Of a stretch of 64,000 nt of DNA, positions 1,507 through 57,063 are shown piece after piece. A model generated the notes under the pieces. The model did not search any database, had not been told where the DNA came from, and worked only from the letters and a program-made list of their open reading frames with translations. The stretch spans positions 14,508-78,507 of the forward strand of contig JAWKWN010000003.1 of the NCBI GenBank assembly GCA_041397505.1, read 5' to 3'. Position numbers and translations under genes: made by a program. The DNA comes from Nitratireductor sp. GTDB taxonomy: Bacteria > Pseudomonadota > Alphaproteobacteria > Rhizobiales > Rhizobiaceae. Position 1 is the first letter of the stretch. Every line of letters begins with the position of its first letter.

Positions 1507-1999
1507 ATGTCCGACCAACTGCCTTTGACGACACCCGCGACGCCAGAAGAGTTGTTTGCGCTTCTCGACAAGCTCGCCATCGCCCATTCCACCACACAGC
1601 ACGAGGCTGTGTTCACGGTTGAAGAGAGTGCACATATCAAGGGCATGATACCGGGTGGCCACACGAAGAACCTGTTCGTGAAGGACAAGAAGGACAATTA
1701 CTTCCTGATCGTCGCCGGGGTCGGCCCGCATTGCGATGAATCATGTCCACCCGCTGATCGGAGCACAAACAAGGGTTTCATTCGCAAATGCCGAGAAATT
1801 GATGGAGTATCTCGGGGTTCAACCCGGATCGGTTACCGCCTTTGCGCCCATGAATGATCATGCCAACCGCGTACAGGTGATCATTGACGAACCCCTGTTT
1901 GAACATGAGCTGATCAATTGCCACCTGTTGACGAACACCATGACCACCACCATTTCCAGAGAGGACCTGTTGAAGTTCCTCACCCATGTCCGGTCATGA
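1507..1999 (+). pseudogene. YbaK/ProX-type aminoacyl-tRNA editing domain protein, one frameshift near 1722
   Basis: ORFs 1507..1857 and 1736..1999 together make one YbaK/EbsC-like protein (...HTKNLFVKDKKDNYFLIVAG | ARIAMNHVHPLIGAQ...). The frame changes at gtcggccc. Confidence 0.75.
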
Positions 2000-2120
2000 G
2001 CCGAGGATAGTCCGCCTTTCAACGCCCATTGACAGTTGATAGGGTCGGGTGCCGAAAAATTGCGCATGACGACGGATTTCGGTTGATGGCAGTGGGCATC
2101 GGTCGGCAAGGAGCATTACG

Positions 2121-3150
2121 ATGAGTAACGAGAACGAAAAATCCGCCACGGAATATGGGACGAGTTTTGGCCAGTCCTATGGAGGCGGATACAATCAGGG
2201 CGGCATTTCAGCCGGATATGATCTTGGCAATGCTGCCACCCAATCCGCACAGGCCCCGGGAATGAACTACGGGGCACTGCTCCAGCTCCGGTCAAGGACA
2301 TCACGACCGCACAATTCATGCAGGAAGTGATAGAAGCATCGAAAATGCAGCCGGTTCTGGTTGATTTCTGGGCACCATGGTGCGGCCCCTGCCGGCAATT
2401 GGGACCAATGATCGAGAAGGTCGTTGCCGAAAGCCGGGGTGCTGTAGTTCTGGTCAAGATGAATATCGACGAGCATCCCGAAATTGCCGGTCGCATGAAC
2501 ATCCAGTCCATTCCTGCCGTCGTCGCGTTTGTCGACGGGCAGCCAAAGTCTGCCTTCATGGGCGCAAAGCCTGAAAGCGAGATCCGCAAGTTCATCGAGG
2601 CGCTGGCCGGACCCATCGGAGCATCGCCGGTTGATACCATGCTGGAGGAGGCAGCAATGCTTTCCCAATCCGGTGATCTGGAAGGCGCTGCCGTACTCTA
2701 CAGTTCGGTTCTTCAGCATGAACCCGACAATGCCACTGCCCTGGCGGGCGTCGGCATGCTGTATCTGGGCGACGGAAACCTGGATCAGGCAGAAGCGATA
2801 CTGAATGCCATTCCTGAAACCAAATCAGCAGAACCCGCAGTCCTGGCTTTTCGCGCGGCCCTTGATCTCGCCCTGCAGGCGGCAAGTCTTGGCGACACAG
2901 CCGAACTCGATGCAAAGGTTGCTGCCAAACCCAGGACTGGCAGGCGCGCTTCGACCTTGCAATCGCTCTGAATGCGCGGGGCCGGAAAGAAGAGGCGGCT
3001 GATCAGCTGCTCGAGATCATTCGTCGCGACCGCAAATGGAATGACGATGGTGCGCGTTCGCAATTGTTGCAATTCTTCGAGGCCTGGGGGCCGACCGACC
3101 CCGATACGCTCTCCGCCCGGCGCAAGCTTTCCTCTGCATTGTTCGCTTGA
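2121..3150 (+). pseudogene. thioredoxin-domain plus TPR protein (YbbN/CnoX-like), two frameshifts near 2272 and 2931
   Basis: Gly-rich N-terminus in frame 0. The Trx domain with WCGPC and the TPR region follow in ORF 2318..2971. The C-terminus DWQARFDLAIALNARGRKEEAADQLLEIIRRDRKWNDDGARSQLLQFFEAWG...SALFA* is in a third frame and ends at 3150. The shifts sit at a GGGG run and a CCC run. Confidence 0.8.
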
Positions 3151-3205
3151 TCAGGGTGCCTTGAGATTAATTCCTGGTGACACACATTGCAGTGACAGGA
3201 GTACG

Positions 3206-3879
3206 ATGATGAAGGCAGGAAACAAGAGCTACCTCAAGACGGCGGACATACCGACAAAAGTTCCGGTGTTTCCGCTATCGGGGCACTGCTGCTGCCCGGA
3301 GGGCAGATGCCGCTCAACATCTTCGAGCCGCGTTATCTGGCGATGATCGATGACGCTTTGTGGTGAACGGCTCATCGCCATGGTTCAACCACGCTTCGAC
3401 GCAGAGCCAACACCGGGTTCCCAAGATGCTGACCTGTGTGAAATGGGTTGCCTGGGCCGCATCACCGCCTTCCAGGAAAGCGGCGACGGGCGCTATCTCA
3501 TTACCCTTTCGGGGATTTGCCGCTACCGTATCCTGCGCGAAGTAGAGGGCAAGAACGGATACCGGCGGTGCGAGATCGCTGTTTATGGCGCTGATCTATC
3601 CGGAGAGGATGATGGCGCCGACGTCGACCGCGAGGCACTTCTTGCCACATTCCGCAAATATCTCGAGACAAACGGAATGGAGGCGGATTGGGATTCGGTA
3701 CGCAAGGCCAGCAATGAAACCCTGGTCACGGCATTGTGCATGATGAGCCCCTACGGACTGCCGAAAAACAGGCATTGCTGGAAGCTGACGATCTCAAATC
3801 TCGCGCAGACACACTTGTCGCCATTACCGAGATTGCCCTTGCAAGGCAGGATGGCAATTCCGGCAACACGCTGCAATGA
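3206..3879 (+). pseudogene. LON peptidase substrate-binding (LON N-terminal) domain protein, three frameshifts near 3281, 3355 and 3762
   Basis: MMKAGN...VPVFPLSG | ALLLPGGQMPLNIFEPRYLAMIDDAL | GERLIAMVQP...MSPYG | AEKQALLEADDLKSRADTLVAITEIALARQDGNSGNTLQ* was reassembled from three frames. Confidence 0.75.
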
Positions 3880-3892
3880 AGCATTACCGGCC

Positions 3893-4101
3893 ATGAATTC
3901 CAGGACCGTAGGCAAGCAGAAGACGGACCTGATCCGAAAATGCTGGAAATGCTCAGTTGCCCACTGACCCATACGGTACTGCATTATGATCGGGAAAAGC
4001 AGGAACTCGTTTCCCGGCCGCCCGTCTTGCTTTCCCGGTGCGTGACGGGATTCGGTCATGCTTGCCTCGAAGCGCGGCAACTCGAAGACGACGAAGATTG
4101 A
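3893..4101 (+). pseudogene. Trm112 family (UPF0434) small protein, about three frameshifts in 210 bp
   Basis: DPKMLEMLSCPLTHTVLHYDREKQELVSR, AARLAFPVRDGI and VMLASEARQLEDDED* lie in different frames. The breaks are at gacct (3928), cccgg (4016) and attcgg (4053). Confidence 0.65.
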
Positions 4102-5378
4102 TCAGATCGGCTGCCCGGCGAGCAGTTTTTGGTGCGCCTTTCTGGTTACCTGCAGCCTGGAAATGAAATACTGCTTCATGCCCGGCATCCGGTCGACCAG
4201 ACCCAATCCGACATCACGGGTGATTCTGAGCAACGGGTTATCGTTCGAAAACAGCCGGTTCAACACATCCGTGGTAACGCCCATCTGAACCGTGTCGAAG
4301 CGTCTCCACATCTGATAGCGCTCCAAACCGCCATCGAGCCATAATCCAGTCCCAACCGGTGTGCCTCGACCACGGTTTCTGCAAGTGCTGCCGCATCGTT
4401 GAAGCCGAGATTGAGCCCCGCCCGCAATCGGATGCACGCCATGGGCCGCATCGCCAGCGAGCGCAAACCTTTCGCGGACAAACTCCCTTGCAAGCGTCAG
4501 TCCAAGTGGAAATGCCCGCCTCGGTCCCTCGACCGTGATTTCGCCAAGCTTGTGACCAAAGCGCTGTTCCAGTTCCAGATCAAAGGCGAAATCATCGCAG
4601 GCCATCAGCCGCTTCGCATCTGCCGTGCGCTCGGTCCAGACAAGCGAGGAACGGTTTCCCTTCAAAGGCAAAATCGCGAACGGACCAGCGGGCGGAAATG
4701 CTCCCGCCCGGCCCTCATGTGGGCGCTCATGGGCTACCGTGACTACAATTCCCATCTGGTCATAGGGCCAGTGAACCGCCTTGATCCCTGCAGCGTCGCG
4801 CAATTTCGAACGAACACCGTCCGCTGCAATCAACAGCCTTGCCTCAAGCCGATGTCCCGATTGCATGGTGATCATGACGGATGCGGGTCCCGTTTCAAAA
4901 CCAGTCACACTGTCGCCATGGACAAGTGAAATCCCGGTCTCCAGGGCCTTTTCCCGCAGCGCTTTTACCAGCGATCGATTGGGCATCATATGCGCGAACG
5001 GCGCATCATGGTTGCCTTCGCTTGTACCATCCGCACCACGACTACCGGCAAAGGTAAGGAAGACGGGCCGAGTGGCATCCGCCAGTTGCTGTCAGTCACG
5101 ATCATTTCGCGGATCGGCTGCGCGTCCTGCGCTATCCTTTCCCAGATACCCAATTCATCCAGCATTCGGGTCGCGGCAGCTGCAATCGCCGAAGCACGGT
5201 TATCGTTCTCGACCGCCTCGGCAGGTGCCGCATCAATCACCGTGACGCCAATTGTCGGCGCTGCCGAGCGGATCGCCACTGCCGTGCAAAGTCCCACATA
5301 ACCGCCACCTGCAATCACGATCTGGTCGTGATTGGCTGACTTTTTTGCTTCGGCACTTGCTGCATCGCTGTGTTTCAT
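4102..5378 (-). pseudogene. UbiH/UbiF/COQ6-family FAD-dependent ubiquinone hydroxylase, at least three frameshifts
   Basis: N-terminal Rossmann motif DQIVIAGGGYVGL is in ORF 4986..5561, with the ATG at 5378. The frame changes near 5090. A compensated out-of-frame patch at 4325-4420 replaces the conserved GQGLNLGFNDAAALAE motif, which is readable in ORF 4260..4493. Confidence 0.8.
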
Positions 5379-5487
5379 CAGACACTTCCCTTTTGATGCC
5401 ATACTGGTTAGCACATTCATGGTCATGCTGCCATCGAACAGGGTGCCGCATGACCAGTGCAAAATTATGACCGGAAGCAGGTTTGCC

Positions 5488-6369
5488 ATGTCCAGAGCCG
5501 TTGAAACACTGATGGAAATCCTTGATCTGGAGACCCTGGAACGAAATCTGGTCCGTGGCACGTCTCCGAAATCCGGCTGGCAAAGGGTCTTTGGCGGGCA
5601 GGTTATCGGTCAGGCCTTGATTGCTGCCCAAAGGACAGTTCAAGCCGACCGCAACGTGCACTCGCTGCATTGTTATTTCATGCGACCGGGTGATCCTGAA
5701 ACACCCATCATCTATGAGGTGGACCGCATACGCGATGGCGGCTCCTTTACCACCCGCCGGGTTGTTGCCATCCAGCATGGGCATGCGATCTTTTCCCTGT
5801 CCTGTTCATTCCAGATCAGGGAGGCAGGCCTCGAGCACTATATGGAAATGGGCCAGGTGACACCGCCCGAAGAACTGCCGGGCACGGCAGAACTCGTCGA
5901 GAAATTCGGCGAACAGGTGCCTGAGAACATCCGCAATTACTGGAAGCGCGACCGCCCGGTTGAGCTTCGCCCGGTTGACCTGACGCATTATGTCTCGAAC
6001 CGCAAACTGGACCCCCGACAGCAGGTCTGGTTCCGCGCGACCGGTGAATTGCCTGACAACGACGCCATACAGGCAGCAATTCTTGCTTATGCCTCGGACA
6101 TGACGTTGCTGGATACCTCACTTTTCGCCCATGGACGCGCAGTCTTCGACCCGGCAATCCAGGTCGCAAGCCTTGACCATGCGATCTGGTTTCACCGGCC
6201 GGCCAGGATGCAGGACTGGCATCTCTACCTTCAGGATAGCCCCAACAGCTCCGGCGCAAGAGGCTTCAATCGCGGTTCTATCTATACAAGGGATGGCGTC
6301 CTCGTTGCTTCGGTCGCTCAGGAAGGCCTGATCCGCCTTCGTAGTGAGGATCTTCCCGCTGGGCACTAG
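5488..6369 (+). CDS. tesB: acyl-CoA thioesterase II
   Basis: ORF 5332..6369 is TesB-like throughout (LDLETLERNLVRG..., VHSLHCYFMRPGDP, SLDHAIWFHRP). I chose the internal Met (MSRAVETL) because the 5' extension overlaps the divergent ubiH-like start. An alternative ATG lies at 5467. Confidence 0.85.
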   Translation: MSRAVETLMEILDLETLERNLVRGTSPKSGWQRVFGGQVIGQALIAAQRTVQADRNVHSLHCYFMRPGDPETPIIYEVDRIRDGGSFTTRRVVAIQHGHAIFSLSCSFQIREAGLEHYMEMGQVTPPEELPGTAELVEKFGEQVPENIRNYWKRDRPVELRPVDLTHYVSNRKLDPRQQVWFRATGELPDNDAIQAAILAYASDMTLLDTSLFAHGRAVFDPAIQVASLDHAIWFHRPARMQDWHLYLQDSPNSSGARGFNRGSIYTRDGVLVASVAQEGLIRLRSEDLPAGH

Positions 6370-6506
6370 GGTTGATGCCAAAATAATAGGCAATCGTGCA
6401 GGAATGCCGAAATTTTAATCATTAATGAAATACTGACAGCCGGAAATTTGCCAAGAAACAAGGCAAAACACAGTCTTAACAAAGGGTTACCAATCATCCA
6501 CCGAGT

Positions 6507-6521
6507 TGGCACGGCATTTGA
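6507..6521 (+). promoter_or_regulatory. sigma-54 (-24/-12) promoter candidate for glnK-amtB
   Basis: TGGCAC-ggcat-TTGA matches the TGGCAC-N5-TTGC consensus except for the last base. It lies about 95 nt upstream of the glnK ATG. Confidence 0.55.
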
Positions 6522-6614
6522 ATGACCAGTTTCGGTCGGTCTGGAACGTGAGGTTCCGGGGCCACCCGTAACCAGGACCAATATCAGGGTCTATGCAAAC
6601 GAACGGGTGATTGA

Positions 6615-6953
<339 letters not shown>

Positions 6954-6993
6954 GGCGACAGGCCCAGCGGTGTGTAACAGGGAATTTGAAAAC

Positions 6994-8398
6994 ATGAAAA
7001 ACCAAATGCAACAGACAGGTTCGACATCGAACCTCCAAAGCGGTTTCAGCCGCGGCCTCACGGGCTCCATTGCCGCGATGCTCGCAACAGTGGTTTCCAC
7101 CACTGCGGCTCTTGCCCAGACCACGACTGATGCGGCAGCTCCTGCTGCAGAAGCCGCTGCACCGATCATGGACAAGGGTGACACGGCATGGATGATGGTT
7201 TCCACCATCCTCGTTCTTTTCATGATCCTTCCCGGTCTTGCCCTTTTCTATGGCGGCCTGGTTCGGACCAAGAACATGCTTTCCGTACTCATGCAGTGCA
7301 CGATGATCACGGCAGTCGTCATCGTTATCTGGGTACTTTACGGATATTCCTTCGCCTTTGGCGGCGGCACCAGCCCCTATTGGGGTGGTCTCGGCAAATT
7401 GTTCCTGGCTGGCGTAACCATGGATTCTGACAGCGGCGACCTTTACTGATGGCGTTGTCATTCCCGAATATGTGTTCATCTGCTTCCAGATGACATTCGC
7501 CGCCATCACGCCGGCGCTGATTGTCGGCGCGTTTGCCGAGCGCATCAAGTTTTCGGCAGTGATCGCATTCGTGGTCCTGTGGGTCACCTTCGTCTACTTC
7601 CCGATCGCACACATGGTCTGGGACGGCGCAGGCCTGATCTTCAACATGGGTGCTCTCGACTTTGCCGGTGGCACGGTTGTTCACATCAATGCCGGTATCG
7701 CAGCCCTCATAGGTTCAATCCTGATCGGCAAGCGCGCTGGTCTGGGACGCGACATCATGGCTCCGCATTCCATGACCTTGACCATGGTAGGTGCTTCCAT
7801 GCTGTGGGTCGGCTGGTTCGGCTTCAACGCCGGTTCAAATCTTGAATCAAACGGCGGTGCCACATTGGCTATGATCAACACCTTCACAGCAACCGCGGGT
7901 GCCATCATTGCCTGGGCATTGATCGAGGCAGTATCTCGCGGCAAGGCCTCCATGCTGGGCGCAGCATCCGGCCTGGTAGCGGGTCTTGTCGCCGTCACAC
8001 CGGCTGCGGGCTCGGTTGGTCCGGTTGGTGCGATTGCGCTTGGCGCCATTGCAAGTCTTGTCTGCTACTTCTTCGTGGCAGTCGTGAAGGCGAAAGCCGG
8101 ATATGATGACAGCCTCGATGTCTTCGGCATCCATGGCATTGGCGGCATCGTCGGCGCTGTTGGCACCGGTATCTTCACCAGCCCGCTGCTGGGTGGAACA
8201 GGCGCCGAGGACTTCTCCATCGCAGCCCAGACCTGGATCCAGATCCAGGCAGTAGCCATCACCATCGTATGGTGCGGTGTGATCTCCTTCGTCCTCTACA
8301 AGATCGTCGACATGATCTTCGGACTGCGCGTCAGCGCCGAGGACGAAGCAACCGGTCTCGACCTTACCTCCCATGGTGAAGCTGCCTATCACAGCTGA
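6994..8398 (+). pseudogene. amtB: ammonium transporter AmtB, one frameshift near 7425
   Basis: Signal peptide plus TM1-3 are in the frame of ORF 6802..7449 (ATG at 6994). The rest is in ORF 7472..8398. The junction reads ...LFLAGVTMD | LTAATFTDGVVIPEYVFICFQMTFAAITPAL. Confidence 0.9.
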
Positions 8399-8478
8399 TA
8401 CCGCAACCCGGCCGGGCAACCGGCCGGTTTCCAATCCCGTCGGAATGTTTCGGCATCTGCCGCGACTTTCCAACAACT

Positions 8479-8505
8479 GGGCCCGGTTTTCCGGGCCCTT
8501 TTTTT
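8479..8505 (+). terminator. intrinsic terminator after amtB
   Basis: GGGCCCGG-tttt-CCGGGCCC hairpin followed by T7. A second GC hairpin (CCGGCCGG gcaa CCGGCCGG) lies at about 8408-8432. Confidence 0.75.
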
Positions 8506-8623
8506 GTTCAATCAAATCATGCGCCAACCTTGATGGTTAACAGCCCCTTAACCTTCGCCTTCTAGGGTCAGGTCATCCTGGCGTGGTGGGACTGTTCGTC
8601 TCGCCTGATTCGCCAATGGTTCG

Positions 8624-11389
8624 ATGATTTTGGTTCGGGGTGATGGGATGCAGGTTACCGGAGCGCGCGCAAGACAGGCAGCAGCTGGACAGGACAGGAT
8701 ATCAGGCTGGCTTTCCGGACAGATCGGTATCCTGGCAGGTCTCGCCATGCTGGCGGGCGTCGCATTTGTCTTTGCCAGCCTTGCAACCTGGAGCGTCAAT
8801 GATCCGAGCTTGTCCAATGCCAACGGAAACATTCCGCAGAATGCCGGAGGTTTTGCAGGTAGTGCCATTGCCGACCTGATCATGCAATTTGTTGGCCTTG
8901 CCGGTGTGGTCGTCCTTATACCGCCTGCGGTATGGGCCTGGCTCAAGATCCTGCAAAAGCCGGTCGGGCGCTGGCGCAACCGCCTCATCATGTGGCTTCC
9001 GTCGGTTCTGCTTGCTGCCGCAGCCCTTGGTTGCCTGCCAAGGCCGCAATCCTGGCCATTGCCAACCGGATTGGGCGGCGTGAGCGGTGACCTGATCCTG
9101 CGGATTCCCGGTTTGCTGACCGGCGGCTTTCCATCCGGAATTTTTGCTGTCCTTCTGGGCCTTGTCCTTGGAATTCTGTCGCTTGCAATCCTGCTGTTCT
9201 CCTCGGGCCTCACAGGTCGGCGTGGGGTTGATGACGCAGAATTGCTTTACGACATGGAAACGGGTGAACTGCTTGATGACGCGGCCGAAGATCGCGAACC
9301 GGGAATTATTCTGGGCGCACTGACACATTGGTATTTTTCTGCTCGCGCTTGGCTGCGCCGTCATCCCTCGCGACCTGCATATTCCAGGTCGGCGAATGTC
9401 CGCATCGACCCTGACATTGAAGGCGCACGCAATCGGCAGCCGCGTCCTTCCATTGCCGCTACCGCCCTTGGCTGGGTTCGTGATACCCATGCAAGGCTTG
9501 TGACGCCGCCAGATGACGGACTGGAGAATTTTGGCAAACCGCGATCTGACCGCGGTCGCGAACCGGCATTCGGGTCTGAAGAGGTGGATTTCGAGGATGA
9601 GGGTGACTATCTCACCGCGCCGGAAATGGCTCCGGAATATGGCGAAAACACCTATGATCCGGATGGTTTGGTATTTGCTGACGACGATGATGATGACGAC
9701 TTCGTCCAGCAGCCGCTGTCACGAAGCCCGGCAAGTTCCGCATCACCGCGTGGTGGCGAACCACCGGTCCAGCGGGTTCAGCCTCGCGTACAGGCCAACC
9801 CGGTCAAACTTCAGCCAGGTTCGCGTATTGTACGGGAAGCCCAGCCATCACTGATCCGCGACGAAGACGGCTTCGAGCTTCCTGAATTGATGCTTTTGAG
9901 CGAGCCACAGAAACTGTCTGCGGAAAAGATGATCAGTGCCGACGCTCTGGAGCAGAATGCACGGCTGCTGGAAGGCGTATTGGAGGATTTCGGCGTCAAG
10001 GGCGAAATCATAAAGGTCCATCCGGGCCCGGTGGTAACGCTTTACGAACTTGAACCGGCTCCCGGCATCAAGTCATCACGCGTGATTGGTCTTGCTGACG
10101 ACATTGCCCGCTCCATGAGTGCCATTGCCTGCCGCGTGGCAGTGGTTCCAGGTCGCAATGCGATCGGTATCGAGCTTCCCAATTCAAGCCGCGAAACCGT
10201 TTATCTTCGCGAGCTTCTGGCAAGTCGCGACTATGACAATAACAAGGGCCGTCTCCCACTGGTTCTGGGCAAGACCATTGGCGGGGAACCGGTCATTGCC
10301 GATCTGGCAAAGATGCCGCACCTGCTGGTGGCCGGCACTACCGGCTCCGGCAAGTCCGTGGCCATCAACACCATGATCCTGTCGGTTCTTTACCGGCTGT
10401 CACCCGAGCAGGTACGCATGATCATGATTGACCCGAAAATGCTGGAGCTTTCGATTTATGACGGCATTCCGCATCTCCTCACGCCTGTCGTGACGGATCC
10501 GAAAAAGGCAGTTGTCGCGCTCAAATGGACCGTCCGCGAGATGGAAGAACGCTACAAGAAGATGTCCAAGGTCGGTGTTCGCAATATCGACGGCTTCAAC
10601 ACCCGAATCGAGCAGGCGAAAAAGAAGGGCGAATCCATTTCGCGCACTGTTCAGACCGGCTATGACCGCGAGACCGGCGAGGCAATCTACGAGACCGAGG
10701 ATCTCGAACTCGAAGCAATGCCATATATCGTGGTCATCATCGACGAAATGGCCGACCTGATGATGGTTGCCGGAAAGGACATCGAAGGAGCGATCCAGCG
10801 CCTTGCACAGATGGCTCGTGCCGCCGGTATTCACGTCATCATGGCAACCCAGCGGCCATCGGTCGATGTCATCACCGGCACGATCAAGGCGAATTTCCCG
10901 ACACGCATTTCGTTCCAGGTCACATCGAAGATCGATTCGCGCACCATTCTCGGTGAACAGGGTGCCGAACAGCTCCTTGGCATGGGCGACATGCTGTACA
11001 TGGCCGGTGGCGGCCGGATCCAGCGTGTACACGGTCCGTTCGTTTCGGATGATGAAGTCGAGAAGGTGGTCAATCACCTCAAGACCCAGGGCGTTCCACA
11101 ATATCTTGAATCGGTTACCAGCGAGGATGACGAAGGTGGATATGAAGGCGGCGAAGGCCCGGCGGGAACAGACGCGCTGGCCGGCTCCAATGATCTTTAT
11201 GATCAGGCGGTTGCCGTCGTTCTGCGCGACCGCAAGGTTTCCACCAGCTATATCCAGCGTCGCCTCGGCATTGGCTATAATCGTGCTGCCTCACTCATAG
11301 AACGCATGGAACAGGAAGGCCTTATCGGCGCTGCCAACCATGCCGGCAAGCGGGAGATACTTGTTCCGGGCGAGAATGAAACAATTTGA
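8624..11389 (+). CDS. ftsK: DNA translocase FtsK
   Basis: 921-aa intact ORF with N-terminal TM segments, an acidic/Pro-rich linker (DDDDDDD), the motor domain with Walker A GTTGSGKS, and a gamma winged-helix C-terminus ([21 protein letters not shown]). Confidence 0.95.
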
Positions 11390-11531
11390 CGGTCACTTCA
11401 CATCTTGCAGCAACGCAAGACAGACAATGACCTCGACATGGCCATGATTGGTCACCACTGCAGGGCATTCGTCTTGCAATTATTGAGATTCATGAGACTG
11501 CAGCACCCATGGCTGCTACCGGAGAATAACG

Positions 11532-12232: not shown

Positions 12233-12357
12233 CTGAAATCGTGCAATAGGTGGAATTTGACCCGATCGCACGGACTTGCCTTGTGCAGCCGTGTCATGAC
12301 GGGCAGGTTGCAATCCGGTTTGTCGTCACTGGTCTGGATTGTTAATGGCTCTTTCAA

Positions 12358-13146: not shown

Positions 13147-13151
13147 TCGGC

Positions 13152-13671: not shown

Positions 13672-13694
13672 TGCCGGGCCGGATCATCTGCGTT

Positions 13695-44695: not shown

Positions 44696-44730
44696 GCAGG
44701 GGCGCTGACCGCTCTTCCACGCGCCAAACA

Positions 44731-45357: not shown

Positions 45358-45513
45358 GGTCTCGGCTTGATTCGGTCTGATGAATGCCTATTTGCATCGC
45401 CAGGGTGGCAATTCAAGCAGCGCTCAGCTTGATAAATTTGGCAAGAATCGTTTCTTTGTCCATAAGAACAGCCAGACTCTGCAACATCCTGCAGTGATTC
45501 GCCATTTGGCAAT

Positions 45514-45542
45514 CTTGCAGCATTGATGTGACCTTCTTATAT
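45514..45542 (+). promoter_or_regulatory. RpoH (sigma-32)-type heat-shock promoter candidate for dnaKJ
   Basis: CTTG-N18-CTTATAT fits the alphaproteobacterial CTTG-N17/18-CYTATNT pattern. It lies about 110 nt upstream of the dnaK ATG. Confidence 0.45.
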
Positions 45543-45649
45543 ACGCGGCAACGCAATTGTCCCGTGCAGTTGCCAATCATCCACAAGGAGCGGCCAAGGG
45601 GAATGCCTCAACAGGGTCCCGGTCGTTTGCTAGCAAGGAGCATATAGAA

Positions 45650-47560: not shown

Positions 47561-47577
47561 CGATTCCATGCAAGCAA

Positions 47578-47620
47578 CACCCCTGAAAGCGTCGAAAAGC
47601 GCCTTCAGGGGTGCTTTTGT
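47578..47620 (+). terminator. hairpin plus T-tract between dnaK and dnaJ (partial terminator/attenuator)
   Basis: CACCCCTGAAAGCG-loop-CGCCTTCAGGGGTG (one mismatch), followed by CTTTTGTG. Confidence 0.55.
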
Positions 47621-47670
47621 GTCCACATTCGGGATGACCGAACGGAAAGATCCTGGGAGCGCAATGCGGA

Positions 47671-48807
47671 ATGGCCAAGTCTGATTATTACGAGACATTG
47701 GGCGTCGAACGTGGCGTCGACGAAAAGGCGCTGAAGAGCGCGTTTCGAAAGAAGGCGATGCAATTTCACCCCGACCGAAATCCGGGTGATGCAACGGCCG
47801 AGGCCAAGTTCAAGGAATTGAACGAAGCCTATGAGGTCCTGAAGGACCCACAAAAGCGTTCGGCCTATGACCGTTTTGGCCATGCAGCCTTCGAACAGGG
47901 CAATGGCGGCATGGGCGGTGGTTTTGGCGGCGGTGGTGCCAGCGCCTTTTCCGACATTTTCGAGGACATTTTCGGCGAGATGATGGGCGGTCGCGGTCGC
48001 GCGCGTTCGGGCGGTCGTGAGCGTGGCGCTGACCTGCGCTACAACATGGAAGTCACGCTCGAAGAGGCGTGGGCCGGGAAGAATGCCGAAATTTCGGTGC
48101 CGACCGCGATCACCTGCGAAACCTGTTCTGGCTCCGGTTCAAAACCCGGCTCGTCGCCGAAGACCTGCGCGACCTGTTCAGGCTCTGGCAGGGTAAGGGC
48201 TGCATCCGGCTTTTTCTCGATCGAGCGCACCTGCCCGACCTGTCAGGGGCGGGGCGAGGTGATTTCCGACCCCTGTGGCAAATGCCATGGCCAGGGCAGG
48301 GTAACGCGGGAACGTACGCTGTCGGTGAACATTCCGGCGGGCATCGAGGATGGCGTGCGTATTCGCCTCGCTGGTGAGGGTGAAGCGGGCGCACGCGGTG
48401 GACCGGCGGGTGATCTCTATATATTTCTTTCGGTCAGGCCGCATGAATTCTTTCAGCGTGATGGTGCCGATCTGTTCTGCCGCATACCTGTGTCGATGAC
48501 GACAGCAGCACTGGGTGGCCAGTTCGAGGTTACCACGCTTGATGGTGCCAAGACGCGGGTGAAGGTTCCTGAAGCCACGCAGACCGGCAAGCAGTTCCGG
48601 CTGAAGGGCAAGGGAATGCCGGTCATGCGTACCAGCAATCATGGTGATCTCTATATCCAGGTCGCGGTTGAAACCCCGCAAAACCTGACACGCCGCCAGC
48701 GCGAATTGCTGGAGGAGTTCAACAAGATTTCGTCGGAAAACAACAATCCCGAATCAAGCGGTTTCTTTTCAAAGATGAAGAATTTCCTCGACGGGCTGGC
48801 AGATTGA
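47671..48807 (+). CDS. dnaJ: molecular chaperone DnaJ
   Basis: 378 aa intact, with a J domain (HPDRNPGD), a G/F region and four CxxCxGxG zinc motifs. Confidence 0.97.
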
Positions 48808-48832
48808 GCAGCTCCGCACCAACCGGATATTT

Positions 48833-49423
48833 TTGATGAAAACTCCCAGGATACTGGTTCTTCCAGGTTCGAACAGATCCGGCTCCCACAATGTGCGATT
48901 GGCCGCAACGCTGACCAAGCATCTATCGCTGCTTGAATGTGATGTGACACGCATATCGCTGGCCGATTACCCGTTACCGATTTACGATGCCGATCTTGAG
49001 ACGCAAAAGGGTCAGCCTGAAAATGCCCGCAAACTGGCGCGGCTGTTTCATGAGCATGACGGTGTTGTTCTCGTCTCGCCAGAATACAATACCTCTGTGA
49101 CGCCATTGATGAAGAACACCATCGACTGGATCAGCCGTGTCGGCTCTGATCAGCATGGAAAACTGGTTCCCTATCGCGGCAAGATCTTTGCCATCGCATC
49201 GGCTTCACCGGGTGCCTATGGCGGTATTCGTGGCCTCAACCATTTGCGCGCCATCCTCGTCAATGTAGGTGCACTGGTTCTGACCGAGCAGCTTGCGGTG
49301 GCAAACGCAGAAAATGCCTTTGACGACATGGATGAATTGACCGACAAGCGTGCATCAGGCTTTCTTGATGCCTTGGCGCGTTCGGTAGCCGAAAAGTCCG
49401 CCGCCTTTTCCGCGCGTGGCTGA
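48833..49423 (+). CDS. NADPH-dependent FMN reductase family oxidoreductase
   Basis: 196 aa with ILVLPGSNRSGSHN and LVSPEYNTSVTPLMKNTIDW. Confidence 0.8.
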   Translation: MMKTPRILVLPGSNRSGSHNVRLAATLTKHLSLLECDVTRISLADYPLPIYDADLETQKGQPENARKLARLFHEHDGVVLVSPEYNTSVTPLMKNTIDWISRVGSDQHGKLVPYRGKIFAIASASPGAYGGIRGLNHLRAILVNVGALVLTEQLAVANAENAFDDMDELTDKRASGFLDALARSVAEKSAAFSARG

Positions 49424-49454
49424 TCCGCGGCAGTGATTCGAACAGGAGCAGGGT

Positions 49455-50165
49455 ATGGCGATCAAGGAAGATGTTTTTCGTGACCGGCTGATTGTGGCGC
49501 TCGACCTGCCGTCTGTGGATGAAGCCCGCGACATGGTTCGCAGGATTGCCGGGGCCGCGACCAATTACAAGATCGGCTACCAGCTGGCACTTGCAGGTGG
49601 CATCGAGCTTGCCCGCGAACTGAAGGCTGAAGGTCACAAGGTCTTTCTCGACATGAAGCTGCTGGATATCGACAACACGGTGGCAAAGGCGGTGGAAAGC
49701 GCGGTTGCGCTTGGTGTCGACATGCTGACCCTGCATGCCTATCCCGAGGCCATGAAGGCAGCCGTTTCGGCGGCGAAGGGCAGCAATCTGTGCCTTCTGG
49801 GCGTCACCGTCCTGACTTCCATGGACGATGCGGACATCGCTGATGCAGGTTATTCCGGTAGCGTAACAGACCTTGTTGGCAAGCGCGCAATGCAGGCACG
49901 CGAAGCGGGAATGGGCGGAATTGTCTGCTCTCCACAGGAAGCCATGGCGATGCGCACGATACTGGGACCATCCATGGCGCTGGTTACCCCCGGTGTCCGG
50001 CCTGCAGGTAGCGATCATGGCGACCAGAAGCGCGTGGCCACACCATCCCAGGCAATGGCTGCTGGTGCCTCGCATCTTGTGGTGGGCCGTCCCGTTACCG
50101 GCGCGGCTGATCCTCGCCTGGCAGCACAGCAGATTGTCGATGAAATCGTATCAACGATAAACTGA
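49455..50165 (+). CDS. pyrF: orotidine-5'-phosphate decarboxylase
   Basis: 236 aa intact with [14 protein letters not shown] and GADHLVVGRP-like motifs. Confidence 0.95.
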
Positions 50166-50242
50166 CAGAAGAGCGCCGACCTCGCTCGCGCCCTGATTTC
50201 TGCTCCCCGTCTTTCCAGCTTTGTCTCGATTAGACTCATTTC

Positions 50243-50291
50243 GCACTTGCACAATCGAGTGCAGTGCAAAATAATGCACCGCCGAAGGTGC
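50243..50291. repeat. cluster of six GCAC/GTGC tetramers forming nested inverted repeats upstream of phaZ
   Basis: tcGCACtTGCACaatcgaGTGCaGTGCaaaataaTGCACcgccgaagGTGCgg, read directly. It lies 50-95 nt upstream of the phaZ ATG. Confidence 0.6.
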
Positions 50292-50338
50292 GGACCGGTT
50301 TCACTGGAAATCCGCACCAATAATGAAAGCAGGCGACG

Positions 50339-51619
50339 ATGTATTACATGCTTTATGAAATGTCCCACGCAGTGCTTGGTCCCTGGCGCGCTGCAGCAGA
50401 CGCAACGCGTCTGTTCTACTCCAATCCGGTCAATCCGGCCTCCCACACCAATTTCGGCAAACAGATGGCTGCTTCGGCGGAGGTCTTCGAGCGCGTAACC
50501 CGCCGCTATGGAAAACCGGAATTCGGCATTACCGAAACCAAAGTCAACGGAATGGCCGTTCCCGTTACCGAGAAGATTGTCTGGAAGCGGCCTTTTTGCA
50601 ACCTCATCCATTTTCAGCGCGCCCTGCCCGAAGGCAAGAGCGCAGGTCCGAGAATCCTTATCGTCGCGCCCATGTCCGGCCACTATGCCACCTTGCTGCG
50701 CGGCACCGTCGAGGAAATGGTCCAGCATGGTGATGTCTACATAACCGACTGGATTGATGCCCGCATGGTTCCGGTAACCGATGGCAGTTTCGATCTGGAC
50801 GATTACATCGACTATGTGATGTCGATCCTGCATTTCCTCGGTTCGAACACCCATGTCATGGCAGTTTGCCAGCCATCCGTTCCGGTTCTGGCCGCGGTAG
50901 CGCTCATGGAAGCGCGCAAGGATCAGCACGCACCAGCTTCAATGACCCTCATGGGTGGTCCCATTGACACCCGCGAGAACCCGACTGCGGTCAACAAGCT
51001 CGCGGAAGACAAGGGCATCGACTGGTTCCGCGACAATGTCATCATGAATGTGCCATTTCCCCATCCTGGCTTCATGCGCGACGTCTATCCCGGCTTTCTC
51101 CAGCTTTCTGGCTTCATGTCGATGAACCTGGATCGCCATATCGTGGCACATCAGGAATTCTTCGCGCATCTGGTTCGCGATGACGGCGATTCAGCCGAAA
51201 AGCACCGCGAATTCTATGACGAATATCTCGCAGTCATGGACCTGGATGCCGCATTCTACCTCCAAACGGTCGATGCTGTATTTGTCCGGCATGCGCTGCC
51301 GAAAGGTGAATTGATGCACCGCGGCACCCGCGTCGATTGTTCGGCCATTACCACGACCGCACTGATGACAGTGGAAGGCGAGAATGACGACATTTCCGGT
51401 CTGGGCCAGACAAGGGCGGCACACAAATTGTGCCTGAACCTGCCAGAGGAAAAGCGTGTTCACTACATGCAGCCAAAAGTCGGTCATTACGGCGTCTTCA
51501 ACGGCTCGCGGTTCCGCGCGGAAATTTCACCACGCATTCGTGACTTCATGCTGTCGAATGACCAGTCGATGCAGGCCCGCAAGAAACCCGCCTCAACCCG
51601 GAAGTCGATCAAGGCCTGA
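50339..51619 (+). CDS. phaZ: intracellular polyhydroxyalkanoate (PHB) depolymerase
   Basis: 426 aa intact. MYYMLYEMSHA...LLIVAPMSGHYATLLRGTV is typical of the PhaZ family. Confidence 0.85.
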   Translation: MYYMLYEMSHAVLGPWRAAADATRLFYSNPVNPASHTNFGKQMAASAEVFERVTRRYGKPEFGITETKVNGMAVPVTEKIVWKRPFCNLIHFQRALPEGKSAGPRILIVAPMSGHYATLLRGTVEEMVQHGDVYITDWIDARMVPVTDGSFDLDDYIDYVMSILHFLGSNTHVMAVCQPSVPVLAAVALMEARKDQHAPASMTLMGGPIDTRENPTAVNKLAEDKGIDWFRDNVIMNVPFPHPGFMRDVYPGFLQLSGFMSMNLDRHIVAHQEFFAHLVRDDGDSAEKHREFYDEYLAVMDLDAAFYLQTVDAVFVRHALPKGELMHRGTRVDCSAITTTALMTVEGENDDISGLGQTRAAHKLCLNLPEEKRVHYMQPKVGHYGVFNGSRFRAEISPRIRDFMLSNDQSMQARKKPASTRKSIKA

Positions 51620-51821
51620 TGGACAATTCCCTGTAGCATTTCCCGTTTCGCCAGAAGCGGGATATGCGGGCATAGCATGATTGTGAGCCGGCTCTGATTG
51701 TATGGTGGCAATCCGGGGTCAGGAGAAAATTCCCTAACGTAACTTGATTCACGACGATTTGATCCCCAACTGAAACGGGAAGGCAATACCGCCTTCGTTC
51801 AGAAGAAGGGGTGATCATTTC

Positions 51822-52298
51822 ATGACACACACCGCATTTGTCCGTCCGGCATGGACCCCGGTAACCATCGCGATGATGATTATCGGCTTCATGGTGTTCT
51901 GGCCACTTGGTCTTGCCATGCTTGCCTATATCCTTTGGGGCGACCGGCTTGAGGAATTCAAGTCGAATGTCAATCGCGCCACAGACAGGGCAGGTCAGTC
52001 ATTCTCCGGCTCCTGGGGTCGCGGTTGCGGCCACAAGCGTAACGGCTTCAGCGCCCGTACCGGCAATGTAGCCTTTGATGAATGGCGTGATGGCGAACTG
52101 GAGCGCCTCGAAGAAGAGCGTCGCAAGCTTGATGAGATGCGCGCCGAATTCGACGAATATCTTCGTGAACTGCGCCGTGCGCGCGATTCGGAAGAGTTCG
52201 AAGCGTTCCGCAAGGCTCACAATGCCCGGAAATCGTCTGATACATCCGATGATGGTCCTGCTGGTCCAAAGGGCCGCCGCAGCGTACCGGAAGTCTGA
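51822..52298 (+). CDS. DUF2852 domain protein
   Basis: 158 aa with an N-terminal TM segment (IAMMIIGFMVFWPLGLAMLAYILWG) and a charged coiled C-terminus (FDEWRDGELERLEEERRKLDEMRAEF). Confidence 0.6.
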   Translation: MTHTAFVRPAWTPVTIAMMIIGFMVFWPLGLAMLAYILWGDRLEEFKSNVNRATDRAGQSFSGSWGRGCGHKRNGFSARTGNVAFDEWRDGELERLEEERRKLDEMRAEFDEYLRELRRARDSEEFEAFRKAHNARKSSDTSDDGPAGPKGRRSVPEV

Positions 52299-52408
52299 GT
52301 TCAGGCATAATCAGCAAGATACGGGGCCCACGGGTCCCGTTTTGCGTCTTCGGGTTCGGCGAATCGGCTATACTGCGCCTTCTGCCAAATCCAGTTTGCC
52401 AGGAACCG

Positions 52409-53152
52409 ATGCGCTTCTTTTCTGCAAGACCACCCTCCAAGAGACAGGCCCGTGAAGTGGTGGCTGATGGTGCCGTCCTGCCGGTCAGCGTTGTCGAAAG
52501 CGCGCGTGCAACGCGGTTGACATTGCGCATCGTACCAGGCGGCAAGGCGCTGAAGGTTACCATTCCTCCGCATGTCAGCGACAAGCAGGTCGACCAGTTC
52601 ATTGCCCGCAATCAGAACTGGATTGCCACGCGCATCGCCCGTATCCCGCAACCTGTCGAGGCAGATAGCGGAGCATTGGTGCCCTATCTCGGCATTGACC
52701 ACCGCATCATTCATCTTGATCGCCTGCGCGGGGTCGTCGAGGCGCGCGAGGTGGCTGGAGAACCGGCATTGCTGGTGCCGGGCGAACCATCCCGGGTGGC
52801 AGGAAAGCTGGCTGCCTTCCTCAAGGCACGTGCGCGCGAACAACTCAACCTTGCAGTGGACCGGCATTGCCGGTCGCTGGGGGTGCGCGCCAGGACCATC
52901 CGTATCACCGACACTACCAGCCGTTGGGGATCATGCTCGACAACCAGGACGCTTTCCTTTTCCTGGCGTATCATAATGGCACCGCCCGAAGTGCTGGACT
53001 ACCTCGCAGCCCATGAAGTCGCCCATCTTCGCGAGATGAACCACAGCCAGGCATTCTGGGACCTTGTGCGCGACATCTGTCCGCAGATGGAGCGGCACAA
53101 ATCCTGGTTGCGTCGCAATGGCGCAAAACTTCATTCGATAAGGCTCGACTGA
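52409..53152 (+). CDS. M48/YgjP-like (DUF45) metal-dependent hydrolase
   Basis: 247 aa with TSRWGSCS and the HEVAHLREMNH (HExxH) motif. Confidence 0.75.
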   Translation: MRFFSARPPSKRQAREVVADGAVLPVSVVESARATRLTLRIVPGGKALKVTIPPHVSDKQVDQFIARNQNWIATRIARIPQPVEADSGALVPYLGIDHRIIHLDRLRGVVEAREVAGEPALLVPGEPSRVAGKLAAFLKARAREQLNLAVDRHCRSLGVRARTIRITDTTSRWGSCSTTRTLSFSWRIIMAPPEVLDYLAAHEVAHLREMNHSQAFWDLVRDICPQMERHKSWLRRNGAKLHSIRLD

Positions 53153-53153
53153 C

Positions 53154-54166
53154 ATGGATCAGCCGGAAAACTTCACACAGGGTTCGCCTTTCACTTTGAC
53201 GGCAAGGGCGGTGGGGTGGAAATTCCGCCATCGCTGGCGATTGAGCATTTCGCATCGGCCGACCAGCCACAGCGTGGAAAACGCAAACCCGGTGGTTTTG
53301 TCTGGCTGCATTGCCAGCGCGACAGCGAACCGGCTACCGCCTTGACGGCCAGTGGCACGGTGGATGCGCTCGTCCTGGACACGCTGTTTGCCGATGAAAC
53401 CCGGCCGCGCACCAGCATGCAGGGCGAAGACGGAATCCTGCTCAACCTTCGTGGCGTCAATCTCAATCCCGGTTCCGAGCCGGAAGACATGATTTCGGTT
53501 CGGTTCTGGATGACGGCCAATACCGTTCTCGGCATCTGGGTCAGGCCGCTGGTGGCAACGCGTGAACTGGTGAGCGCCATCCGCAAGGGCCATTGCCCCT
53601 CGACACCGGGCGAACTGATTGCGCGTCTTGCCCTGCGTATTGCCGACAACATGGAACCCGTCATTGCCGATCTGAGCGAGCGCATCGACGCGCTGGAGCT
53701 TGTAAGCGTCAATGGCAGCACCGTTCCCCACCGCCGCGAACTTGCCGAACTGCGCCGCAGCTCGATCGCGCTGCGCCGCTTCATGTCACCGCAACGCGAT
53801 GCCCTGACGACCCTCGAGATCGAGGATCTGACATGGATGCAGGAACGCGATCGCAGCCGCTTGCGCGAGGCTTCTGATCGCATCTTGCGGATGAATGAAG
53901 AACTTGAAATGGTCCGCGAGCGCGCATCGGTGGTGCATGACGAGATCATGGATGCGCGGGCCGAACGGATGAACCGCCAGATGGTCGTCCTGTCCGTGGT
54001 CGCCGCAGTCTTTCTTCCGTTGTCCCTGCTGGCTGGCATGCTAGGCATGAATGTCGGTGGTATTCCGGGCATCAACGACCCGCATGCGTTTCTGGTGATT
54101 TCGATATCCATGCTCGTCATCGCCGCCCTGCTCGGACTGGCCTTTCGTTGGTTTCGCGTTATCTGA
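53154..54166 (+). pseudogene. zntB: CorA-family zinc transporter ZntB, one frameshift near 53186
   Basis: The ATG at 53154 (MDQPENFTQG) joins FAFHFDGKGGGVEIPPSL... of ORF 53216..54166 after a one-base shortfall in a T run. GMNVGG and two C-terminal TM segments are present. Confidence 0.8.
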
Positions 54167-54271
54167 TGATTGGTCGGGCGGCGGAATTGGCCTCGCATAT
54201 GGACTCGCAGTGCCATTTCTGGCACGTGAAACCGTCGCATGGCAGTATGACGGTTGAGGATGATGGGCAGC

Positions 54272-54927
54272 ATGGACATCAAGATTTGCGGACTTTCCAC
54301 GGCTGAGGCTCTTGACGCTGTCATTGACGGCGGCGCTTCGCATGCCGGCTTCATCTTCTTTGAAAAAAGCCCGCGCAATGTCACCCCTGTTCAGGCTGCA
54401 ACCCTGGCTGAGCGCGCGCGCGGGCGCGTGCTGACCGTTGCAGTTACCGTCGACGAAAGCGATGACGCGATGGATGCAATCGTGTCGATCATGCAGCCGG
54501 ACATGCTGCAGTTTCACGGCAGGGAGACGCCACAGCGGATCGCGGCCTTGAAGGCGAAATACGCACTTCCCGCAATCAAGGCATTTTCCATACGCTCAGC
54601 TGACGACCTGAAGGCATTTGCGCCCTATCTCGGAATTGCCGATTGCTTTCTTTTCGATGCAAAACCGCCAAAGGGATCGGATCTGCCCGGGGGCAATGGT
54701 GTATCCTTCGATTGGTCGCTGATGGACGGGCTTGACCCGGACCTGCCATACATGCTTTCGGGTGGGATTGGACCGGAAAATCTGGAAAAGGCGATTGCCG
54801 GGTCAGGCCGCCCGGCATTGATATCTCGTCAGGGGTCGAATCCTCGCCCGGCAGGAAGGACCCTGACAAAATTAGCAGTTTGCTTGCGCAAGCCCGGAAA
54901 ATGGATGCAATTGCAAATGGCCGTTGA
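54272..54927 (+). pseudogene. trpF: phosphoribosylanthranilate isomerase, one frameshift near 54805
   Basis: MDIKICGL...LSGGIGPENLEKAIAGSG | APGIDISSGVESSPGRKDPDKISSLLAQARKMDAIANGR* (stop at 54925-54927). Confidence 0.85.
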
Positions 54928-54984
54928 AAAAAGCCGGGTGGCATATCAAGCCACCATGCAGGATGAAACAGGAGCAGGCATAGC

Positions 54985-56205
54985 GTGACAAAACCAGTCG
55001 AACCCAATTCGTTCCGCACAGGACCCGACGAGAGCGGCCATTTCGGAATTTTCGGCGGACGCTATGTTGCCGAAACACTGATGCCGCTCATCCTCGAACT
55101 CGAGCAGGCCTATCGCGATGCCAAGAATGACCCGGCCTTTCATGCAGAGCTCGAAAACCTGAACAAGCATTATACGGGCCGCCCCTCGCCGCTGTATTTT
55201 GCCGAAAGGCTGACCCAGCATCTTGGCGGTGCAAAAATCTACTTCAAGCGCGACGAGCTGAACCACACCGGAAGCCACAAGATCAACAATTGCCTTGGTC
55301 AGATCCTGCTTGCCCGGCGAATGGGAAAGACCCGCATCATTGCCGAGACGGGGGCTGGGCAGCACGGCGTGGCATCTGCCACGGTTTCAGCGCGGTTCGG
55401 CTATCCCTGTGTGGTGTACATGGGCAAGACCGATGTCGAGCGCCAGTCGCCCAACGTGTTTCGCATGAAGCTCCTGGGTGCCGAGGTCATGCCGGTCACC
55501 TCCGGCGCCGGTACGCTCAAGGATGCGATGAATGAAGCCCTTCGCGACTGGGTTACCAATGTTCGCGACACCTATTACATCATCGGCACCGCAGCAGGCC
55601 CGCATCCCTATCCGGAGCTGGTTCGCGATTTCCAGTCGGTCATCGGCAAGGAATTGCGTGGCCAGATGCTGGAAGCCGAAGGACGCCTGCCGGACATGCT
55701 GATTGCCGCGGTAGGCGGTGGCTCCAACGCCATCGGTCTGTTTCATCCTTTCCTCGATGACAAGGAAATCGAGATCATTGGCGTGGAAGCGGGCGGTCAT
55801 GGCCTTGACGGTGATGAGCACTGTGCCTCGATTACCGCTGGTACTCCCGGTGTTCTCCATGGCAACCGTACCTTCCTGCTTCAGGACGCTGACGGCCAGA
55901 TCAAGGAAGGCCATTCCATATCCGCTGGTCTGGACTATCCCGGTATCGGCCCCGAGCATTCCTGGCTCAAGGATACGGGTCGCGTCGAATATGTCCCGAT
56001 CATGGATACCGAGGCATTGGAGGCGTTTCAGCTGCTTTGTCGGCTGGAGGGCATCATTCCGGCTCTGGAACCTTCCCACGCACTGGCTGAGGTCATCAAG
56101 CGCGCCCCCGGGATGCGAAAGGACCAGATTATCGTCATGAATCTCTGTGGCCGTGGCGACAAGGATGTCTTCACCGTCAGCAAGCATCTCGGCTTTGAAC
56201 TCTGA
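54985..56205 (+). CDS. trpB: tryptophan synthase beta chain
   Basis: 406 aa intact with a GTG start behind [14 protein letters not shown] holds the PLP lysine. Confidence 0.97.
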
Positions 56206-56221
56206 AATCTGGACCAGGCGC

Positions 56222-57063
56222 ATGACCACACGCATTGATACCCGTTTTGCTGCCCTCAAGGCAGAAGGCCGCCCCGCGCTTGTCACTTTTGTCACGGCGG
56301 GCGATCCCGATTACGATACATCGCTTGAAATCATCCGCGGCCTTCCCGGCGCCGGCGCTGATCTGATCGAGCTTGGCATGCCGTTTTCAGATCCGATGGC
56401 GGATGGTCCGGCAGTGCAGCTCGCCGGACGCCGTGCGTTGATGGCTGGACAGAACATGGTCAAGACGCTGAAAATGGTGAAGGAATTTCGCCAGGGCGAT
56501 CCTGATACACCCGTTATCCTGATGGGTTATTACAATCCAATCTACATTTACGGCAGTGAACGGTTTCTCGCCGACGCCAAGGCTGCCGGTGTTGATGGCT
56601 TGATCATCGTCGATCTTCCACCGGAAGAAGACAGTGAGCTTTGTGTTCCCACACTCGCAGCCGGGCTCAATTTCATTCGCCTCGCCACACCTACAACCGA
56701 TGCAAAGCGGCTGGAGCGGGTTTTGAAAAACACGTCCGGTTTCGTCTATTATGTTTCGATTACCGGCATCACCGGGTCTGCCGCGCCGACACGGCCGAGG
56801 TTGCCGCTTCGGTTGCCCATATAAAGGCGAAGACCGATCTTCCCGTTGCAGTGGGCTTTGGTGTCAGGACCCCCGAACAGGCTCGGGCGATTGGCGCTGG
56901 TGCGGACGGCGTTGTCGTGGGATCCGCAATTGTTGGAGCAATCGGTGACAGCCTTGACGGCAAAGGCAAGGCAACGCCAGGAACTGTTGGCGCTGTGCTT
57001 GAACTGGTGCGCGAACTGGCTGCGGGCGTGCGGGCCTCGCGAAAGCCTGTCACTCCAGCCTGA
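56222..57063 (+). pseudogene. trpA: tryptophan synthase alpha chain, one frameshift near 56785
   Basis: [17 protein letters not shown]...[13 protein letters not shown] | [33 protein letters not shown]... Confidence 0.9.

Follow-up and report, generated by a model that had tools for sequence, protein, structure and literature searches.

Patches of small indel errors in a Nitratireductor sp. metagenome-assembled genome as the probable cause of its many broken housekeeping genes

A stretch of 64,000 nucleotides from contig JAWKWN010000003.1 of assembly GCA_041397505.1 (positions 14,508 to 78,507), hereafter called the window, belongs to a Nitratireductor sp. metagenome-assembled genome (MAG) and carries many conserved genes that can be followed only by changing from one reading frame to another. 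Are these genes decaying in the organism, or is the sequence in error? The original prediction, made from the letters alone, favored an artifact over pseudogenization, and the comparison with relatives leads to the same preference, since the insertions and deletions (indels) are private, the relatives are free of them, no signature of decay was found, and a sister MAG is patchy as well. With a probability of about 0.93, the broken genes appear to reflect small indel errors in patches of the MAG consensus and not gene decay. The indels are contained in the public deposit, are private to it, come without accompanying substitutions or stop codons, fall without regard to coding status, and are patchily distributed.

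Private indels in the window and in the deposited record

Relatives of the window were found through exact-protein look-ups and matched it with 93-97% identity over kilobases. They comprised a sister MAG of the same submission (GCA_041397545.1, with a neighboring accession and locus-tag series, R3D34_), of which parts of contig 6 (L001, L002, L102, and L112) and contig 47 (L091) were used; GCA_020441795.1; and more than 20 contigs of ENA assemblies from at least 10 different samples. The MEGAHIT-style "k141_" or "WANG18-1 ... scaffold" names of ENA contigs suggest that these are short-read assemblies. The regions 3.7-43 kb and 52-64 kb were covered by 2-10 independent assemblies, and the sister MAG was the sole covering relative at 1-3.7 kb and 43-52 kb; across 59-3354, with one relative only, indel polarity was taken from the intact gene calls of that relative. 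Pairwise alignments were parsed into window coordinates, and an indel was counted as private when the window differed in length from every covering relative. Among the matches listed in a genome-collection scan with LeuS, relatives reached at most 72% amino acid identity (Phyllobacterium, Aureimonas, and others), a metagenome scan with LolA gave no match closer than 74%, and no literature mention of JAWKWK, JAGRLM, or SAMN0838917x was found.

The alignments revealed 111 private indel sites, corresponding to 139 elementary indels, with 98 deletions and 41 insertions (about 2.4:1). One-base events accounted for 73% of the elementary indels and two-base events for 22%; by size, there were 70 of -1, 24 of -2, 32 of +1, 7 of +2, and 6 of ±3 or -6. 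At all 99 sites with at least two independent relatives, every covering assembly (2-10) contradicted the window, with zero dissenters. Coding DNA contained 93 of the sites, and 83 of these (87 under a slightly different merging rule) were net non-multiples of three. The number of broken genes was 28, and their counterparts in the relatives were called intact. The predicted list of about 27 broken genes thus matches the one obtained, and the sites quoted there were right to within a few bases, including 11836 (one A of AAAA lost), 11915 (one C of CCCCC lost), 31036 (one G of GGGG lost), 34195, 53180, 2934, and 2268. The predicted frameshifts themselves were real, but their number, put at 55-60, was too low, and they are not all single-base events, given the two-base deletions and insertions and the few indels of three bases.

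The breaks are also visible independently of any relative. The Pfam TrpA profile is divided between frames, with positions 1-181 in the open reading frame (ORF) 56147-56824 and positions 182-242 in the ORF 56641-57063, and the LolA profile is split into 3-46 and then 74-165 in overlapping ORFs of different frames. These continuations across frames bear out the claim that conserved genes can be read here only by a change of frame. The Pfam domains of Rho are intact in the remaining rho ORF.

The frameshifts are present in the public deposit and are not later additions, because truncated GenBank products equal the broken ORFs of the window. MEZ5799530.1 (FolC) and MEZ5799502.1 (SecB), from a "Nitratireductor sp." MAG with locus tags R3D29_, are 100% identical to window proteins, and an intact HslV is common to the window source and the sister MAG. 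Among the products of broken genes, MEZ5799527.1 (ZntB, 316 amino acids rather than 337) equals the window ORF 53216-54163 residue for residue. Exact agreement was likewise found for MEZ5799503.1 (FxsA, 123 amino acids rather than 180; 33181-33549, minus strand), MEZ5799505.1 (a 133-amino-acid "3D domain" fragment of the 401-amino-acid MltA; 35450-35848, plus strand), and MEZ5799493.1 (77 amino acids, annotated as hypothetical, a fragment of the YkuD-like protein; 14901-15131). This coincidence speaks against a corruption or deliberate alteration of a clean record after deposition, as does the finding that the relatives' 90%-identity clusters of eight heavily broken genes (LolA, Xth, cNMP-binding, response regulator, YggS, ParB, ParA, and Rho) contain no protein of the source contig; we regard such a change as extremely improbable. 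The four fragments were issued as ordinary GenBank proteins, without a flag as frameshifted pseudogenes. A count of gaps in the GenBank accession series, tried as a proxy for pseudogenes, gave 28 vs 29 proteins from SecB to FolC and at first seemed contrary to the frameshifts; it was rejected because the annotation pipeline had released fragments as proteins, which explains the discrepancy.

The sites are strongly clustered along the window. Indel counts per kb ranged from 0 to 13, with a variance-to-mean ratio of 5.5 vs at most 2.1 in 20,000 simulations of uniform placement, and the longest clean run was 17,108 bp (36078-53179) vs a simulated maximum of 8,158. Three density regimes were distinguished: dense (11.4-15.9 and 20.13-20.63 kb), moderate or sparse (0-7.4, 24.4-36.1, and 53.2-60.1 kb), and clean blocks. 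Both the strong clustering and the clean stretch at 36.1-53.1 kb had been pointed out from the sequence alone; no private indel lies in 36078-53179, and gaps occur there in one block only, a divergent piece of intergenic sequence at 49417-49455.

Comparison with gene decay, recoding, and strain mixture

If the indels were real, they would represent a very recent and massive pseudogenization, for example in a mismatch-repair-deficient hypermutator or in a newly host-restricted population. The presence of the lesions in the deposited record fits such an event, as do the excess of deletions over insertions, which resembles natural deletional bias, and some enrichment at runs of at least three identical bases. 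The substitutions do not. In spontaneous bacterial mutation, substitutions are several-fold commoner than indels, and real indels in such number should therefore be accompanied by a large excess of substitutions. Among relatives differing by 1.3-3%, we counted 0 indels vs 925 substitutions (143, 79, 373, and 330 over 10.9, 4.1, 13.0, and 10.9 kb in the individual pairs, with zero indels in each), whereas the cNMP-binding gene, the response regulator gene, and parB together carry 33 elementary indels and about 30 private substitutions, a ratio of about 1. The density of private substitutions was without relation to that of indels, and kb 13 and kb 20, both among the richest in indels, were among the least substituted.

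The broken genes also lack the marks of relaxed selection that pseudogenization would bring. Their synonymous divergence (dS) was 0.138 vs 0.133 in intact genes, and the ratio of non-synonymous to synonymous divergence (dN/dS) was 0.089 vs 0.063, low in both classes. The third codon position of the disrupted frame holds 68-79% of the private substitutions. After frame correction, none of the 28 broken genes contained an in-frame stop, in agreement with the predicted lack of nonsense mutations, and no larger deletions were found within genes. Frameshifts were not depleted in coding DNA (84% of indel sites were coding, vs 89% of bases across the dirty spans; p = 0.10), and multiples of three were not enriched among coding indels (10 of 93 net). 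Essential genes were struck, lolA four times and parB nine times, along with rho and coaE; the four lolA frameshifts and the lesion in the rho N-terminus had been recognized from the sequence. No lesion was common to the window and any of up to 10 relatives, 43% of the one-base deletions removed non-repeated bases, and in the sister assembly a similar patch lies at a locus that is also present as a clean copy.

Pseudogenization, which the original prediction had kept as its alternative, thus fails the alignment to relatives with tabulated indels, the homopolymer test, and the dN/dS comparison, and we consider it very unlikely. Slightly less probable again is a real and very recent burst of small indels in a Nitratireductor-like, free-living lineage. 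Such a burst could mark a sweeping hypermutator or genome decay at its beginning, seen at a time when substitutions and stops had yet to accrue, and essential genes would somehow still have to be expressed. Many housekeeping-type genes cut by small indels, with a deletion bias, are a feature that the window shares with Mycobacterium leprae, Sodalis glossinidius, and Shigella. In host-restricted decay of this type, frameshifts occur together with nonsense mutations, larger deletions, raised dN/dS, expansion of insertion sequences, and shared lesions, and essential genes are spared. Unlike in those genomes, none of these accompaniments of decay was seen in the window.

The sequence context of the indels was then considered. 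In the relatives, the base lost in the 69 one-base deletions stood in a run of length 1 in 30 cases, 2 in 19, 3 in 11, 4 in 7, and 5 in 2. Runs of at least three were hit about twofold more often than expected (20/69 vs 13.9%, p = 9e-4). For runs of at least two, the enrichment was not significant (p = 0.065), as such runs contain 47% of all bases anyway; the 30 non-repeated bases correspond to 43% of the deletions. The predicted location of the breaks in or beside runs of 2-5 identical bases therefore holds for runs of at least three but is near chance when runs of two are included. The homopolymer bias lay in the sparse regions (16/41 at runs of at least three, vs 4/28 in the dense patches). 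In the dense patches, there were many two-base events, and insertions were nearly as frequent as deletions. The predicted "homopolymer-prone" artifact accordingly stands as an artifact, but its dependence on homopolymers was overstated, with context-independent indels of 1-2 bp in both directions in the densest patches. No enrichment near indels was found for the methylation- or restriction-type motifs GANTC, GATC, CCWGG, and GCGC.

Because the protein stays conserved before and after each break, a biological decoding of the frames could also be imagined, by programmed ribosomal frameshifting, transcriptional slippage, or another form of recoding. Its probability appears close to nil: the sites share no slippery motif or long poly(A) or poly(T) tract, the longest run being 5; the shifts include -2, +2, -5, and +4; no relative is frameshifted at any site; and one gene has up to 10 shifts. 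With prfB, dnaX, and the IS3-family transposases, the window genes share the use of two overlapping frames for one protein. Programmed sites of that kind are single, motif-dependent, and conserved among relatives, unlike the shift sites of the window, which are not conserved and number up to 10 per gene. Conserved flanking gene sequence is likewise found at phase-variable contingency loci and at the poly(A)-tract frameshifts of insect endosymbionts, which Tamas and co-workers reportedly described in 2008 as rescued by transcriptional slippage. Slippage-rescued and contingency sites lie in long homopolymer or simple-repeat tracts, in contrast to the short runs and frequent non-repeated bases at the sites of the window.

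The indels could alternatively have arisen by strain collapse, in which the reads of co-occurring strains are merged and the consensus acquires indels at their points of difference. The data sets clearly contain several closely related strains together, and the sister bin contains two versions of one locus that are 2.8% apart, mostly at third codon positions. However, 33 indels lay near polymorphic sites vs 28.3 ± 4.1 after randomization, and 18 lay near private substitutions vs 14.0 ± 3.2, so that the co-localization of indels and polymorphism was only about 1.2 standard deviations above the local null; moreover, divergence is not highest in the densest patches. As a variant of the artifact, strain collapse is weakly disfavored, and we hold it to be unlikely.

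Consensus error as the probable source

Consensus error would account for the patches as follows. The MAG consensus would be accurate in some blocks and retain uncorrected small indel errors in others, and the clustering would reflect block-wise differences in consensus quality or data support. The errors probably come from a single-molecule long-read consensus at low depth or without effective polishing, a source suggested by the indel-dominated spectrum of 1-2 bp events with its deletion excess and weak homopolymer bias. In one variant, long-read depth would have been low and short-read polishing would have failed or been absent in some stretches; in another, long-read-derived filler would lie between blocks of short-read quality. 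A consensus quality that changes sharply from place to place on the contig, which the original prediction had named as one option, is supported by the patchy private indels of both the window and the sister MAG.

The sister MAG provides in effect an internal replicate. On its contig 6, the 4.1 kb upstream of ftsK have no called genes and carry 54 private indels, and the adjoining 13 kb of the same contig has zero indels vs the ENA contigs. The ubiH-glnK-amtB locus occurs twice in GCA_041397545.1, as a dirty copy on contig 6 and as a clean copy at the end of contig 47 (L112 16584-20684 vs L091 1-4096, equivalent to about 3740-7600 of the window). The contig 47 copy has zero indels vs the ENA contigs, and the two copies probably represent two strains that were binned together, as they differ by the 2.8% mentioned above. 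The sister mnmE is also broken by private indels of contig 6 (equivalents of window positions 24976-26109, in L002/L102). The dirty patches of the sister MAG lie at positions other than those of the window, which shows the assemblies of this submission to be mosaics of clean and error-laden blocks. As side observations, the adjacency of glnK, amtB, and ftsK (window 6994-11389) was confirmed in two ENA contigs (L113 and L119), and sister contig 47 ends inside amtB at the equivalent of window 7823, near the change of contig 6 from dirty to clean (about 7600).

Uncorrected long-read error is a well-documented cause of frameshifted ORFs in genomes and metagenomes, and some errors can survive short-read polishing where reads are not aligned reliably (10.1101/2021.08.23.457338, PMC9262707, PMC8812927). 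The long-read consensus residue treated in these sources, among them the proovframe preprint (10.1101/2021.08.23.457338), resembles the window in that frameshifts private to an assembly split conserved genes, with a deletion excess, some homopolymer enrichment, persistence where polishing fails, and no substitution load. The homopolymer bias of the window is weaker than is commonly described and two-base events are frequent, and the patches of the window, unlike a uniform residue, are sharply bounded, with 10-22 indels per kb beside error-free blocks. Such sharp boundaries argue for data support that differs from block to block, and against a uniform rate of residual error.

Several observations weigh against consensus error as set out here. 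The platform and the pipeline, including the particular assembly or polishing step at fault, are inferred. A weak homopolymer bias combined with so many two-base deletions is unlike the textbook residue of a well-covered nanopore consensus and fits a very low depth better. The region 59-3354 was compared with a single relative, the closest relative found is about 97% identical, and the same strain was never seen sequenced independently. The densest genes also have a slight excess of non-synonymous differences and of differences at codon positions 1 and 2. For these two positions, the shift in the dense patches was weak (32% vs 23%, p ≈ 0.05), and it could be due to substitution error, to misalignment, or, formally, to relaxed constraint.

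With consensus error as the preferred explanation, the affected genes are most likely intact and functional, so that the organism most likely has a complete lolA, rho, parAB, coaE, and the rest, and the biological importance of the breaks is nil. Their consequence lies in data hygiene: in one public MAG, and in at least one sister from the same submission, patches on the kilobase scale with 1-2% indel error stand beside clean sequence, and genome-averaged completeness or quality scores mask these patches. Annotation loses or truncates about 28 genes in 64 kb, the truncated products are now in protein databases, and a pseudogene census, pangenome, or metabolic reconstruction based on these MAGs would be misled.

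Affected and clean segments and other features of the locus

The window has an alphaproteobacterial composition of 56-57% GC and contains one tRNA-Gly gene, beyond which an Rfam scan of the window gave no match. The gene order runs from pirin, proX/ybaK, ubiH, glnK-amtB-ftsK, lolA, and leuS through parBA-gidB-mnmG-mnmE-rho-hemJ-hemE to secB, followed by hslUV, the his operon, dnaKJ, trpFBA-accD-folC, and then addAB.

The first affected segment (59-7428) is of moderate density, with about 26 sites (about 3.5/kb), and was aligned to sister contig 47 and, from 3.7 kb on, also to 3-4 further assemblies. It contains the proX/ybaK-like gene and the Trx-TPR gene with two frameshifts each, the LON-domain gene with three, trm112 with four, ubiH with 5-7 depending on the merging of nearby indels, and amtB with one. 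The 3' part of amtB and ftsK follow in a clean segment (7429-11403) with zero private indels. The dense segment at 11404-15893 has about 45 sites and 61 elementary indels (about 13.6/kb), which go in both directions, include many of two bases, and stand in random-looking context; 8-10 independent relatives were unanimous against the window at every site. Here, lolA has four frameshifts, xth one (12366), the cNMP-binding gene nine, the OmpR-type response regulator gene eight, the ykuD-like gene six, and yggS ten.

The next clean segment (15894-20127), with leuS, lptE, and holA, has as its sole difference an in-frame 6-bp deletion at 16682. This loss of CCGAAT from leuS, seen against 7/7 relatives and with clean sequence all around it, is possibly a true polymorphism and not an error. 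The segment at 20128-21661 has 11 sites within 505 bp (20128-20632), of which parB contains ten and the holA-parB spacer the remaining one, and a +1/-1 pair in parA (21522 and 21661); nine frameshifts were assigned to parB and two to parA, with 7/7 and 6/6 relatives against the window.

Beyond these dense patches, the lesions thin out. On the minus strand, mnmG has a pair at 24467-24488, of -2 and -1, whose combined effect restores the frame after 21 nucleotides (two frameshifts, 6/6 relatives against the window). Also on the minus strand, the region 27232-27857 contains one frameshift in rho (-1 at 27422, 35 nucleotides past the start), one in hemJ (-1 at 27857), and two net-zero sites, with 5/5 relatives against the window. 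On the plus strand at 29950-31746, the DUF299 kinase gene (29950) and maf (31036) have one frameshift each and coaE has two (31682, +1; 31742, -1), contradicted by 8-9 of 8-9 relatives. The sparse, homopolymer-biased segment at 33318-36077 has seven sites, all deletions, with one frameshift each in fxsA, the Tim44-like gene, and mltA and two in smr (8-10 of 8-10 relatives against the window).

The longest clean run (36078-53179) extends over a helix-turn-helix gene, hslUV, the his operon, dnaKJ, and phaZ to ygjP. The last affected segment (53180-60065) is sparse, with one frameshift each in zntB (53180), trpF (54800), trpA (56785), and the 3' end of addA (60065, -1) and with intergenic sites at 54929, 57070, 57084, and 59974; the 2-7 independent assemblies covering it were all against the window. 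The addA gene had been listed as free of frameshifts, which does not hold for its 3' end: the one-base deletion at 60065 shifts the last 18 or so codons, giving 1181 amino acids rather than 1192. The intergenic site at 59974 is a further one-base deletion, and both deletions lie beyond the range of the original prediction. Nearby, in the folC-trxA spacer (59562-59565), the window lacks about 305 bp carried by 7/7 relatives (L092 3828-4131), and the junction has a short GCTT-like repeat; the difference could stem from a deletion in nature, from a small insertion element, or from a collapse during assembly.

Two DnaA boxes mark the intergenic region between hemE and the DUF299 kinase gene (29214-29626), one perfect (TTATCCACA, 29571-29579) and one with a single mismatch (29206-29214); the window as a whole has no more DnaA boxes than chance would give. 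Alphaproteobacterial origins usually lie beside hemE, and because these boxes adjoin hemE, the region is a likely oriC.

Along the window, the divergence from the sister MAG forms a strongly mosaic pattern. It is 0.1% in hisF (42526-43302) and 3-6 mismatches/kb across 38.5-43.5 kb, and it reaches 13% in a flavodoxin_2-like gene (48836-49419) and the adjoining intergenic stretch 49417-49455, which suggests recombination between strains.

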